Assembly: GCF_036507355.1 (NCBI RefSeq)
Contig: NZ_AP027877.1
DNA from: Escherichia coli
GTDB lineage: Bacteria; Pseudomonadota; Gammaproteobacteria; Enterobacterales; Enterobacteriaceae
DNA: 64,000 nucleotides
Direction: 5' to 3' (one strand)
Shown in pieces: positions 42,001 through 51,000 of the stretch. How positions within the stretch are numbered: position 1 is the first letter of the stretch; each line of letters starts with the position of its first letter. A program made the position numbers.

Positions 42001-45000
42001 ACGCTTATTTCATTTATTGCAAAGACCATTTCATACCTATTAATGATTAACTCTAATGGGTATTATTATATTTAGTGGTTATTCATATTTAATAAAAAAA
42101 TAACATTATTTATACAATTATTAACCTTTGTAACTTTATTTCACTGAAGCGATTCAGTTTGCATTTTTTATTTTATTATTAAGGTAGCCTCCTTCCCCCT
42201 AAATATAGTTAAGTCTAAAAAAGTAAATCGAGAATTGTAATGCACGAATATTTAATGTTTGCCCTGGCACTCTCTCCTTTGCTGCTGATGGTATTTTTAA
42301 TACTGAAATTAAAAATGCCCATCCATTATTCCGTACTGATCTCTTTGGTATTCACCGCTGCACTATCGGCAATATTCTGGGAAATGCCCACACAGAATCT
42401 GAAAGCCGCGATAGGCTATGGTGCACTGAAGGGACTATGGCCGATCGTAATTGTTATCCTCGGCGCTATCTTCAGTTATAACGTCATGCAGGCGACCAAA
42501 GCGCTGGATATTCTGCGCGATATTCTCGCCAGCATTAGCGAAGATAAGCGTATTCAGGTGCTGCTGATTTCATGGTGTTTTGGTGGATTTCTTGAAGCCG
42601 CTGCGGGCTATGGCACGGCGGTCGCTATTCCGATCGGTATTCTCATTGCGCTGGGATTCAACCCGTTGAAGGCGGCGATTGCTTCCCTCGTAGCAAATAC
42701 CGTTCCGACCGCATTTGGCGCGGTTGGGATCCCAGTTTCTATTCTGGCAGAGCAGGTTAATCTGCCGGTTTATACCTTAGGCGGAACCATTATTTTGCAG
42801 CTCGCGCTGTTTAATATCCTGCTGCCGTTTGTGATTGTCTGCATTATTGGCGGTGGCCTGAAAGCCATTCGCGGCGTATTTCTGATCACGTTGATTTGCG
42901 GCATTTCCACGCTGGTTCCGCAATATTTTGTCGCCATCCATCTTGGCGCGGAATTACCCGCCTTTGCCGGTAGCCTGGTCAGCCTGTTTGCCGTGGCGAT
43001 GGTCAGTCGCCTGCGCAAAGGGAAAACCGATCCCGAGTGGCGCATTGAGGTCAGCCATACCCGCGAAACCACGCCGCGCTCGGCAAAAGTGTTGTTCCGG
43101 GTTGGCTCTATTTATCTGTTTATTTTTGTGTTTATCCTGCTGTGTTCGCCGCTGTTCCCGACAATAAAAAGCGTGGCATCCCAACTGGCTTCGGTGCTGC
43201 ATTTCACGTTGGCTGACGGCAAAACGATGGCGCTGAAAGTTGAATGGGCGACCACACCGGGGATGCTGATCATCTTTGCGACCATTATCGGCGGTTTTAT
43301 TCAGGGAGCGTCCGCACGTGGGATGCTGGAAGTATTTATCAAAACGATTTTCCAGCTTAAAAACTCTATCGTCGCAATTATGGCGATCGTCGCGCTGGCC
43401 ACGGTGATGGATCTCAGCGGGATTATCTCCACGCTGGCCCAGTCGATTGTCGATCTGACCGGCAGCTCGTACGTCTTCCTCGCCCCGGTGATTGGCGCGC
43501 TGGGCACGTTCGTGACCGGCAGCGATACCAACTCGAACATTCTGTTCGGCAAGCTGCAAACCATTGCCGCCAGCAAGTTACATATCGATCCTAACTGGCT
43601 GGCGGCGGCCAATACCTCTGGCGCTACGGGGGGGAAAATGATTTCGCCGCAAAGCATCGCCATCGCAGTTTCTGCCACCAAAATGGACGGTCAGGCCAAC
43701 CAGATTATGTCTGGCACCATGAAATACTGCTGCGCCTACATTGTGATCCTCGGCCTGAAAGTCGGTCTGTTTTATTACTGGTTTATGGCGTAAACCATTG
43801 TCAACCCCGTCAAATTCGCGGCAATCGAATTTGACGACATAGTGACCAAAAAGGTTTACACCGCCCCGGGAACGGAACGAGGCAACAGACTTTACGATTT
43901 GTCGGCGCTGACTAAAATAGCGCCGATGTTTCAAATCGAGGATTGTTGTTATGTTGTTCTGGAAAAAGATGGTGAAGAAGTTCGACGCCTTTTCCGGTGA
44001 TGCTGCCAACTTACTGATTTAGTGTATGATGGTGTTTTTAAGGTGCTTGCGTGGCTTCCATTTCCATCAGATGTCCTTCCTGCTCCGCTACTGAAGGCGT
44101 GGTGCGTAACGGCAAAAGCACTGCCGGACATCAGCGCTATCTCTGCTCTCATTGCCGTAAAACATGGCAACTGCAGTTCACTTACACCGCCTCTCAGCCC
44201 GGTACGCACCAGAAAATCATTGATATGGCCATGAATGGCGTCGGATGTCGCGCCAGTGCACGCATTATGGGCGTTGGCCTCAACACGATTTTCCGCCATT
44301 TAAAAAACTCAGGCCGCAGTCGGTAACCTCGCGCATACAGCCGGGCAGTGTAGACTGGCCCCCTGAATCTCCAGACAACCAATATCACTTAAATAAGTGA
44401 TAGTCTTAATACTAGTTTTTAGACTAGTCATTGGAGAACAGATGATTGATGTCTTAGGGCCGGAGAAACGCAGACGGCGTACTACACAGGAAAAGATCGC
44501 TATCGTTCAGCAGAGCTTTGAACCGGGAATGACGGTCTCCCTTGTTGCCCGGCAACATGGTGTGGCAGCCAGCCAGCTATTTCTCTGGCGTAAGCAATAC
44601 CAGGAGGGAAGTCTTACTGCTGTGGCTGCCGGAGAACAGGTCGTTCCTGCCTCTGAACTTGCTGCCGCCATGAAGCAGATTAAAGAACTCCAGCGCCTGC
44701 TCGGCAAAAAAACGATGGAAAATGAACTCCTTAAAGAAGCCGTTGAATATGGGCGAGCAAAAAAGTGGATAGCGCACGCGCCCTTATTGCCCGGGGATGG
44801 GGAGTAAGCTTCGTCAGCCGTTGTCTCCGGGTGTCGCGTGCGCAGTTGCACGTCATTCTCAGACGAACCGATGACTGGAAGGAAGGCCGCCGCAGCCGTC
44901 ACACGGATGATACGGATGTGCTTCGCCGTATACACCATGTTATCGGAGAGCTGCCCACATATGGTTATCGTCGGGTATCCGGTCCCACCTTGCAGGTTTT

Positions 45001-48000: not shown

Positions 48001-51000
48001 AACAACGTAGTACGATGAACATTGCGTACAACCTTCCCGATTTACATTTCTGAACTTCCTCCCTTGTTTACCTATTGCGTAATGCGCCTGCTACTACCCG
48101 GCAGGCGCGTTATCTTTTTACGGACAAACAATCATGCAACCAGAAGTTGAAGTATTAACCGATCATAATGAGCTAATTTGTTCGAGCTTTATTGAACACA
48201 TTGCCAACACATTAAATTTAGGAGTGGTGTACAACTAAACCTGCAGCCAAGGATGTATAGTGAGCGAAGCCCTATCAGGCCTTTTTGGTCAGTAGATAAG
48301 ATTGATCTTCGTTGATAGAATTTACTTACACCAGCTGTTACATTAAGATAATTTTTTGGTGGGAGAATGATAAGATCTTACGTAACAATTTGATTTTAAT
48401 GGTGCCGATAATAGGAGTCGAACCTACGACCTTCGCATTACGAATGCGCTGCTCTACCAACTGAGCTATATCGGCCCTGAAAGGACATGTTCACGAACGT
48501 GAATCACGGTGGACAAGGTTAAAACTAACCGGGCGATGCGTCAATGGCCTTGTGAATCAAATGGCTACTTTTGCATCACCCGATTTTATTTACGCACGAA
48601 TGGTGTAATCACCAATGCCGATCCACTTGTAAGTGGTCAGTGCTTCCAGCCCCATTGGGCCACGCGCGTGGAGTTTTTGTGTGCTTACCGCCACTTCCGC
48701 ACCCAGTCCAAACTGGCCGCCGTCGGTAAAACGCGTAGAGGCGTTAACGTAAACAGCGGACGAATCCACTTCGTTAACAAAACGCTGGGCGTTGCGCATA
48801 TCGCGGGTCAGGATCGCATCGGAGTGTTGTGTGCCGTGTTCACGAATATGGGCGATGGCATCGTCAAGATCGCTGACGATTTTGACGTTCAAATCTAATG
48901 ACAGAAACTCATCGTCATACTCTTCGGCTTTAACCGCCACCACCTTCGCGGGGCCTGCCTGCAACTGTGTCAGCGCAGCTGCATCTGCGTGTAATGTCAC
49001 GCCGCTTTCCGCCATTTGTTTGCTTAATACGGGCAGGAAGCTATCGGCGATGTTTTTATTCACCAGCAACGTTTCTACCGTATTACATGTGCTCGGACGC
49101 TGAGTTTTCGCATTGACGATTACTTTCAGGGCTTCAGCAATCTCTGCACTTTCATCAACATAAATATGGCATACGCCTATACCACCTGTGATCACCGGGA
49201 TCGTCGACTGCTCGCGGCACAGTTTATGCAAACCAGCCCCGCCGCGCGGGATCAGCATGTCGATGTATTTATCCATACGCAGCATTTCACTGACCAGCGC
49301 ACGGTCAGGATTATCAATCGCCTGCACGGCACCCGCCGGTAAGCCACAGGATTTCAGGGCGTCCTGAATCACCGCCACCGTTGCCGCGTTAGTGCGACAG
49401 GTTTCTTTGCCACCACGCAGGATCACCGCATTACCGGTTTTCAGGCACAGCGAAGCGACATCAACCGTCACGTTCGGGCGCGCTTCATAAATCACGCCAG
49501 TAACCCCCAGCGGTACGCGACGACGCTCAAGACGCAGGCCGCTGTCCAGTACGCCGCCATCGATTACCTGCCCCACCGGATCGGCGAGGTTGCACACCTG
49601 GCGCACATCATCGGCAATGCCTTTCAGCCGTGCGGGCGTCAGTGCCAGACGGTCAAGCATCGCTTCGCTAAGGCCATTGGCTCGCGCGTCAGCAACATCC
49701 TGGGCGTTAGCGTTGAGGATGATTTCGCTTTGTGCTTCCAGTTCATCGGCGATTTTTTCCAGCACGCGATTTTTTTCGCGGCTGGAGAGTTGCGCTAATT
49801 TATACGAGGCTTGCTTCGCGGCAATGCCCATTTGTTCCAGCATCGGCCAGCTCCTTAACGGGTAATCATGTCATCACGGTGAACGGCAACCGGGCCGTAT
49901 TCATATCCCAGTATTGCATCAATTTCTTGCGAGTGGTGTCCGGCAATACGGCGTAATGCATCGCTGTTGTAACGACTGACGCCGTGGGCGATATCGCGAC
50001 CTTCGAGGTTACAAATGCGGATGACTTCACCACGCGAGAAATTGCCAGTCACGCTTTTAATGCCTTTCGGCAACAGGGAGCTGCCGCATTCAAGAATGGC
50101 GGCAGTTGCCCCTTCATCTACCGTGATTTCACCCGCCGGCGGCGCACCGAAAATCCAGCGTTTACGGTTTTCAAGCGGAGTCGCCTGGGCATGGAACAGC
50201 GTACCGACGGAAATGCCTTCCATCACATCACCAATGACGCCCGGCTTGCTGCCCGCGGCAATAATGGTGTCGATACCCGCACGGCAAGCCACGTCCGCGG
50301 CCTGCAATTTGGTACTCATGCCGCCAGTTCCGAGGCCTGAAACGCTGTCACCGGCAATCGCGCGCAGTGCGTCATCAATACCGTAAACATCTTTAATCAA
50401 TTCTGCCTGCGGATTACTGCGCGGGTCAGCGGTATACAAACCTTTTTGATCGGTCAGTAACAACAGTTTATCGGCACCCGCCAGAATCGCCGCCAGTGCA
50501 GAAAGGTTGTCGTTATCGCCGACTTTAATCTCTGCCGTAGCGACAGCATCGTTCTCATTGATTACCGGAACGATATTGTTATCGAGCAACGCACGCAGGG
50601 TGTCGCGGGCGTTCAGGAAGCGTTCACGGTCTTCCATATCAGCACGGGTCAGCAGCATTTGCCCGACGTGAATGCCATAAATTGAAAACAGCTGTTCCCA
50701 CAGTTGAATCAGTCGACTCTGCCCTACCGCCGCCAGCAGTTGTTTCGAGGCGATAGTCGCTGGCAGTTCTGGGTAACCCAGGTGCTCACGTCCGGCGGCG
50801 ATCGCGCCCGACGTCACAATAACAATCCGATGCCCGGCGGCATGTAACTGCGCGCACTGGCGAACAAGTTCAACGATATGGGCACGGTTCAGGCGGCGCG
50901 ATCCGCCTGTTAGCACACTGGTGCCGAGTTTTACCACCAGCGTCTGGCTGTCACTCATGATTCTCTGCCATTCAATTTTAGGAAAAATGATATCAAACGA

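Follow-up and report, generated by a model that had tools for sequence, protein, structure and literature searches.

Escherichia coli K-12 carries three paralogous gene sets, on CP4-6, CP4-57, and CP4-44, each with a gene for a CbeA-family antitoxin followed by one for a CbtA-family toxin. When the CP4-6 toxin YkfI is overproduced, growth stops and the cells turn lemon-shaped before they lyse; the protein interacts with FtsZ, and YafW, YfjZ, or CbeA can each neutralize it (PMC5371832). For all three toxins the binding site on FtsZ is the H6/H7 loop, and all three block elongation as well; the exchange F65S abolishes the YkfI–FtsZ two-hybrid interaction and alters the cell-shape phenotype (PMC5624674). 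As far as the original work is quoted in PMC5371832, CbeA acts on the target, by bundling FtsZ and MreB, and not by binding the toxin, which is the definition of a type IV antitoxin. The present study concerns a block of seven genes, from ykfB to the toxin gene ykfI, which lies beside the threonine tRNA gene thrW in a stretch of 64,000 nucleotides (nt) of E. coli (contig NZ_AP027877.1, assembly GCF_036507355.1). This whole stretch is called the window below, and all positions refer to it unless another sequence is named. The block, whose genes are intact, is almost certainly that end of the cryptic integrative element CP4-6 which adjoins thrW; elsewhere the element is eroded.

Other genes of these sets have also been studied. 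K-12 YafX, under the name ArdBYAF, raised the plating of phage lambda in vivo 9250-, 27-, 7510-, and 1080-fold against type IA, IB, IC, and ID restriction, respectively (PMC2836571, Table 2), and left modification almost unaffected; its relatives ArdB and KlcA are antirestriction proteins of plasmids (PMC2836571). The paralogous CP4-57 genes yfjXY-ypjJ-yfjZ-ypjF have been described as one operon, and protease activity, with the antitoxin MqsA as substrate, has been reported for its product LfgB, a paralogue of YkfG (PMC10846083). Together with the K-12 annotation, the tests of the toxin, antitoxin, and antirestriction proteins (PMC5371832, PMC5624674, PMC2836571), and the structures of YkfF and of homologues, this means that the locus is already known in detail.

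The block was identified from a six-frame list of open reading frames (ORFs), a tRNA scan, and a megablast search of 5,426 complete E. coli genomes. From 44976 to beyond 49000 the window is collinear with K-12 through yafY, ykfB, ykfF, yafX, ykfG, ykfH, yafW, ykfI, thrW, and proA. Because the DNA between 44976 and 48600 shares 99.5% identity with K-12 (17 mismatches and one indel in 3625 nt), the ORFs are real genes and not chance reading frames. All genes of the block lie on the plus strand, with the gene order, spacing, and flanks (thrW, proA) of K-12, where the homologous DNA is annotated in RefSeq as the thrW-proximal end of the cryptic prophage CP4-6 (b0245–b0251). The original prediction, of a compact co-directional block after a joint with the insertion sequence (IS) IS2, holds throughout: every named feature is present, on the plus strand, within a few bases of where it had been placed.

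To assign the copy, the proteins of the window were compared by blastp with the three K-12 paralogue sets. Identity was 98–100% to the CP4-6 proteins, versus 75–95% to the CP4-57 set and 60–82% to the CP4-44 set; outside CP4-6 it was typically 60–84%, the maximum of 95% being a partial match to YpjJ. The block is therefore the CP4-6 copy, and the alignment to the three sets that had been proposed as a check returns a clear answer. YkfF, YafX, YkfG, and YkfH are 100% identical to their K-12 counterparts. Six of the seven ORFs have Pfam matches (E values of 1e-39 to 1e-68), ykfB being without a match in the local copy of Pfam. The family calls made earlier (DUF905, ArdB/KlcA, RadC-like JAB, DUF987, CbeA, and CbtA) were all verified by Pfam or NCBIfam and by the RefSeq annotation of K-12. 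No evidence contradicts the identification as CP4-6, and the K-12 gene names can be applied to the block with confidence, although the significance of this beyond correct annotation is small.

The differences from K-12 are unevenly spread, with 13 of the 18 falling within the 380 nt of 45065–45444 and four within the 3138 nt of 45445–48582. Right of thrW, the backbone of the chromosome is about 1–3% diverged from K-12, and the island end is far more K-12-like than the chromosome of its host. This pattern suggests that 45065–45444, at the yafY remnant and the 5′ end of ykfB, is a recombined patch and that the island end was recently shared or exchanged. At the other side, the K-12 boundary of CP4-6 (262898) maps to 48448, and the attachment (att) core of the island corresponds to the 3′ 49 nt of thrW. 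An Rfam scan of 43500–49000 found only thrW, two other matches lying far under their gathering scores. The toxin gene does end near thrW, as had been proposed, the gap between the ykfI stop and thrW being 381 nt and not 380 bp. The features are collected in Table 1.

Table 1. Features of the thrW-proximal end of the island and of its left joint, in window coordinates.
Feature	Position	Strand	Evidence and remarks
IS1, left 353 bp (left inverted repeat, IRL, and insA 44051–44326)	43998..44350	+	IRL GGTGATGCTGCC..., InsA ORF; cut by IS2 insertion
IS2 nt 1–628 (IRL, orfA, first ~71 codons of orfB), internally truncated	44351..44978	+	blastn
Chimeric ORF, 156 amino acids, IS2 OrfB N-terminus and YafY C-terminus in frame	44765..45235	+	NCBIfam, Pfam
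yafY 3′ remnant (yafY nt 185 to stop, last 86 codons)	44976..45235	+	Alignments
ykfB (YfjT/YkfB family, predicted secreted), intact, 155 amino acids	45259..45726	+	K-12 homology
ykfF (DUF905), intact	45803..46042	+	Pfam DUF905, E 4e-43
Terminator-like hairpin ACGCCAGC-N7-GCTGGCGT + T5	46095..46122	+	Hairpin scan; ends 17 nt before the yafX start codon
yafX (ArdB/KlcA-family antirestriction), intact	46140..46598	+	Pfam Antirestrict PF03230, E 1.8e-39
ykfG (RadC-like JAB/JAMM domain), intact	46614..47090	+	Pfam RadC PF04002, E 5.7e-47
ykfH (DUF987), intact	47099..47320	+	Pfam DUF987, E 4e-40
yafW (CbeA/YeeU-family type IV antitoxin), intact	47339..47656	+	Pfam CbeA_antitoxin PF06154, E 1.7e-49
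ykfI (CbtA-family toxin), intact	47677..48018	+	Pfam CbtA_toxin PF06755; 20 nt after yafW, as in K-12
Strong terminator-like hairpin, 14-bp stem and T-run	48079..48123	+	60 nt after the ykfI stop
34-codon ORF (MQPEVEVLTDHNELICSSFIEHIANTLNLGVVYN)	48134..48238	+	First 63 nt = K-12 pseudogene ykfN (b4626)
thrW, tRNA-Thr(CGU)	48400..48475	-	ARAGORN; Rfam, 71.8 bits

The toxin–antitoxin pair received the closest comparison with characterized proteins. YkfI matches the CbtA_toxin model over its full length (residues 1–112 on model positions 1–112 of 112; E 2.2e-68; 227.8 bits, the cutoff being 25) and is 99% identical to the tested K-12 YkfI. The sole change is I7T, and T7 also occurs in YpjF and in two plasmid-borne homologues; it is the majority residue of the family, with K-12 as the exception. 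F65 is present and invariant in a six-sequence alignment, and C15 is kept as in K-12 YkfI and YpjF. The same YkfI allele is found in RefSeq as WP_000854680.1, annotated YkfI in E. coli S1-NGR-02-A. Its partner YafW, likewise 99% identical to the K-12 protein and the same allele as YafW of S1-NGR-02-A (WP_000070396.1), differs only by L57R, at a position that is variable in the family (S, K, R, or L), and matches the structures of YfjZ in the Protein Data Bank (PDB 2EA9/2JN7) with E 4e-57. On sequence grounds the toxin is without an inactivating change, which had been named as the finding that would refute the original prediction. The alleles would be expected to behave like the K-12 proteins, and the pair is probably functional: YkfI would bind the H6/H7 loop of FtsZ and block MreB-dependent elongation, giving lemon-shaped cells, and YafW, as a type IV antitoxin of the CbeA family, would counteract it.

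The remaining genes of the block also agree with the families proposed for them. YafX matches the structures of ArdB (PDB 2WJ9, E 3.5e-71) and KlcA (2KMG, E 1.3e-23); its gene is probably functional, and the protein would alleviate type I restriction in vivo and not block modification. In YkfG, which matches PDB 2QLC with E 2.5e-25 and is 82% identical to LfgB (YfjY), the metal-binding JAMM motif is intact (HNHPSGETTPSQAD, residues 107–120, read as H107-x-H-x7-S-x2-D120). The structure of YkfF is available as PDB 2HJJ. YkfB, 98.1% identical to K-12 YkfB, has a signal-peptide-like N-terminus ending in ASA, in keeping with the secreted protein first proposed, and its three changes (L4R, M10V, A12V) all fall within the signal peptide. 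This YkfB allele is indexed in 1583 blocks of a contig collection, where it bears the label PF27224 (YfjT). In the PDB, YkfB had only weak matches, to the megabody scaffold HopQ (E > 3e-4, none of the stretches passing alone), and these were treated as chance.

The five genes yafX-ykfG-ykfH-yafW-ykfI form a unit with gaps of 15, 8, 18, and 20 nt. The hairpin after ykfI folds with −25.3 kcal/mol (z-score −4.4), none of 200 shuffled sequences being as stable, and is likely the end of an operon. As tight gene spacing and a strong hairpin with a T-run after ykfI fit together, we infer that yafX to ykfI would be co-transcribed. The block would presumably still be expressed after the deletion upstream of it. 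The 34-codon ykfN-like ORF sits between this terminator and thrW; the correspondence to ykfN was mapped from K-12 positions 263150–263212 (NC_000913.3), and in at least one other genome a gene of 34 amino acids has been predicted at the corresponding position.

The left boundary of the block differs from that of an intact island. IS2 has been inserted into IS1, and homology to E. coli genomes with an intact IS1 at this site ends at 44350. The IS2 is a divergent copy, with 96.3% identity to K-12 IS2F over 628 nt by blastn. At the joint, IS2 nt 628 meets yafY nt 185, and the TAT at 44976–44978 is common to both (a 3-bp microhomology). Since IS2 is broken within orfB rather than at one of its ends, the joint looks to us like an illegitimate or microhomology deletion and not like a product of transposition. 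The boundary would then be a secondary scar, formed by insertion of IS2 into IS1 and a subsequent deletion across TAT. E. coli F3_13_1_3 has the same lactate-utilization cargo and the same IS1, intact, followed by an IS5 fragment and genes for a GTPase, DUF932, and a WYL regulator, then ypjK, yfjS, and ykfB; judged from this arrangement, the deletion would have removed the GTPase, DUF932, WYL-regulator, and ypjK genes together with the 5′ part of yafY. The exact IS2–yafY joint had no match in 100,044 species-representative genomes and was absent by megablast from the complete E. coli RefSeq genomes. The scar is a record of how this CP4-6 copy lost the upstream half of a conserved module.

The reading frame left unexplained by the original prediction, and suspected there to be the 3′ remnant of a yafY-like gene continuing from the IS2 orfB fragment, is just that: it is 97.7% identical to residues 62–147 of K-12 YafY. 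Its end at 45235 stands, whereas the start given as 44971 does not, as homology to yafY begins at 44976 and IS2 identity runs to 44978. Residues 1–72 of the chimeric ORF are IS2 TnpB (NCBIfam, E 1e-42), and residues 71–156 are the YfjS_YafY domain, the C-terminal part of a lipoprotein domain (Pfam, E 4e-47). Because the signal peptide and lipobox of YafY are absent, the product, if made at all, is that of a pseudogene. A search for the exact chimeric protein returned no record.

At the distal end of the island, a fragment of a FimB/FimE-like recombinase (24313–24717) is followed by an IS600-like OrfB fragment (24714–25256, minus strand), IS1 insA (25305–25580, minus strand), and the 3′ part of the integrase gene intF (ORF 25646–26272). 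Only about 590 nt of intF are left, abutting the IS1 and IS600-like fragments, and the fragment had no exact-protein record. In K-12, CP4-6 with an intact intF is excision-proficient. Because of the truncated integrase together with the IS1–IS2–yafY scar, the present island probably cannot excise any more; this loss concerns the island's mobility and leaves the identification of the block untouched.

Between the two ends, 36000–43793 holds a cluster for lactate utilization (lutABC/ykgEFG-like, dld, and an L-lactate permease), in place of the genes that K-12 CP4-6 has at this position. This cargo DNA is 99.5% identical to an island of E. coli F3_13_1_3 that adjoins ypjA, a different chromosomal site. 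The flanks, 1–24000 (bet genes, ehaA) and 49000–64000 (proB, phoE, frsA, pepD), have best identities of 98.0–98.2% among the complete E. coli genomes, and the best matches of the right flank are O157:H7/O55:H7-type strains. From the load of IS1, IS2, and IS600-like elements and the backbone identity of about 98%, one could guess that the host may belong to a Shigella-like or otherwise unsampled lineage.

Several caveats apply. The upstream part of the module is deleted, including any promoter there and the gene for a WYL/DeoR-type regulator. YafW neutralized YkfI only partly when both were encoded on one plasmid (PMC5371832). A two-hybrid interaction of YkfI with MreB was not detected by Heller et al. 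(PMC5624674), nor did Wen et al. see one in the bacterial adenylate cyclase two-hybrid (BACTH) assay (PMC5371832), so that the MreB arm of the YkfI mechanism would have to be argued from cell morphology and from paralogues. ArdB-family proteins, YafX included, gave no inhibition of EcoKI in vitro (PMC2836571). A protease activity of YkfG would likewise be an extrapolation from a single report on the paralogue LfgB.

The distribution of the block bears on what kind of module it is. Any part of 45803–48018 was found in one of 50,697 phage records, as a partial match in an unannotated record of 3.2 kb, versus 1978 plasmid records that match parts of the block, 1678 of them predicted to be conjugative. 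Nearly the whole block is held by 19 plasmid records; among the matches listed, eight are near-identical (seven K-12 F′-sized plasmids and one record of 18 kb), and the others include large plasmids with an inserted island. In a spread sample of the remaining low-identity plasmid matches, most of them predicted to be conjugative, the match is limited to the RadC-like JAB gene or the DUF905 gene. The same 12-gene module, from the GTPase to the CbtA-family toxin, is present on large plasmids as well as at several sites in chromosomes. These records agree with a module that belongs to plasmids or islands and not to phages.

From the same records, the block could be viewed as not derived from a phage at all but as an establishment and maintenance cassette of conjugative or mobilizable elements, sitting on an island that integrates at a tRNA gene and owes the label "P4-like prophage" to its integrase alone. 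The antirestriction and RadC-like proteins would serve survival on entry, and the toxin–antitoxin pair the stability of the element. Besides the near absence from phage records and the conjugative plasmids that share the RadC-like or DUF905 gene, the role of ArdB/KlcA proteins as antirestriction proteins of plasmids (PMC2836571) speaks for this, as does the finding that the CbeA-family antitoxins CbeA, YagB, and YfjZ, as Cre fusions, are translocated through the type IV secretion system of the F plasmid (PMC11288057). However, where a plasmid has the whole block, it is a K-12 F′ episome or a large plasmid typed as non-mobilizable, and the block looks like an inserted island there and not like a leading region. 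Transfer genes are absent from the island of the window, and a PADLOC scan of the seven proteins gave no match and no tie to a catalogued anti-phage system. The proposal would moreover re-label the ecological role only and leave the gene identities unchanged. We hold it as a tentative possibility, somewhat on the improbable side. The narrower idea, that the block as a unit originated in a plasmid leading region, is not supported, in view of the same F′ episomes and non-mobilizable plasmids. Irrespective of origin, the plasmid-shared and virtually phage-free gene families, together with the conserved hairpin before yafX, are modest leads on how tRNA-integrating islands are established and regulated.

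Two further arrangements of the module were observed. On the 254-kb plasmid p6_A of Citrobacter freundii, the full 12-gene module lies directly downstream of genes of a heat-resistance island (locus L020, 1–11217; also L002, 1–9041). These neighbors are kefB-GI, psiE-GI, HtpX, and a trypsin-like protease, and in E. coli S1-NGR-02-A, too, this protease gene stands before the module, which seems to move together with the heat-resistance locus. On one E. coli contig (L009, 9339–11424), a divergent partial module, with DUF932, RadC, a CbeA-type antitoxin, and a CbtA-type toxin of 122 amino acids, stands tail to tail with a CP4-6-type module, and the two toxin genes converge within 600 bp.

Decay of the island raises another reading, in which the block is a silent relic whose genes are open only because deletion and decay were recent, and which is neither transcribed nor useful in this host. 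The truncation of intF by IS1 and IS600-like fragments, the replacement of the upstream half of the module by IS1 and IS2 fragments, and the terminator-like hairpin directly before yafX would all suit a relic; so would the promoter scan, which gave six sigma-70-like sites versus 3.9 ± 2.2 in shuffled sequence and hence no enrichment. Yet the seven ORFs are of full length, with four differences from K-12 in 45445–48582 against 1–3% in the flanking backbone, and identical alleles are found intact in many genomes. In K-12, the paralogous operon of CP4-57 is transcribed and is induced by stress (PMC10846083), and transcription from IS2 could read into the block. A silent relic is unlikely.

The hairpin before yafX has a stem of 8 bp without mismatches and a loop of 7 nt. 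It folds with −14.8 kcal/mol (z-score −2.4), and is the best-conserved part of the ykfF–yafX intergenic region across six divergent island copies. The CP4-57 copy has the identical hairpin within surrounding DNA of about 85% identity, and in four further copies it is the best-kept intergenic segment even though the sequence upstream can barely be aligned. Among the six copies no compensatory changes occur in the stem, and the ET151 copy carries two stem changes that do not offset one another; conservation is seen at the level of the sequence, and the RNA structure is putative. Transcripts of yafX must cross it, because there is no room for a promoter between hairpin and start codon. It may be a terminator, an attenuator, or a protein-binding palindrome or operator. 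The more specific proposal is quite improbable, namely that it is a cis-regulatory gate, as attenuator or as operator for an island regulator such as the WYL/DeoR type, that keeps the operon off until a read-through signal arrives; with the regulator gene deleted here, the IS2 promoter could be the nearest plausible upstream driver.

A relocated paralogue of CP4-57 or CP4-44 type in place of CP4-6 can practically be dismissed: although the three sets have a common gene order and 60–95% protein identity (see also PMC5371832) and are confusable from sequence alone, the 98–100% identity to the CP4-6 proteins and the collinearity with K-12 CP4-6 via thrW into proA speak against it, and the blastp comparison rules such an origin out.

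The preferred reading, an eroded CP4-6 end, can be placed among the known systems as follows. With CP4-6 of K-12 the block shares locus, gene order, spacing, and flanks, with a single exchange in YafW, a single one in YkfI, and three, within the signal peptide, in YkfB. In contrast to K-12, only the last 86 codons of yafY remain, joined to a fragment of IS2 orfB, and the K-12 upstream genes (ykfL/ykfK, yafZ, ykfA, perR, and others) are missing at this position. The lfgABCDE operon of CP4-57 (yfjX-yfjY-ypjJ-yfjZ-ypjF) has the same five families in the same order, and the hairpin, T-run, and ribosome-binding site before the first gene are nearly identical, the CP4-57 T-run being one T longer; it differs in protein identity (about 75–95%) and in that MqsA regulation and the LfgB protease activity are reported for CP4-57 (PMC10846083).

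CbtA/CbeA (YeeV/YeeU) of CP4-44 share with YkfI/YafW the Pfam families, the order of antitoxin and then toxin, F65, the FtsZ H6/H7 loop as target, and cross-neutralizing paralogues. Identity is 60% for the toxin and 62% for the antitoxin, however, and the intergenic gap is 20 nt between yafW and ykfI but 88 nt in CP4-44. CbtA has R15 where YkfI has C15, and YkfI is without the C-terminal 11 residues of CbtA and without a detected two-hybrid interaction with MreB. Finally, YafX belongs to the same Pfam family as ArdB (PAI II CFT073, PDB 2WJ9; pKM101) and KlcA (IncP plasmids, 2KMG) and, as the K-12 protein, has ArdB-type antirestriction activity in vivo, but it is chromosomal and island-borne rather than plasmid-borne.

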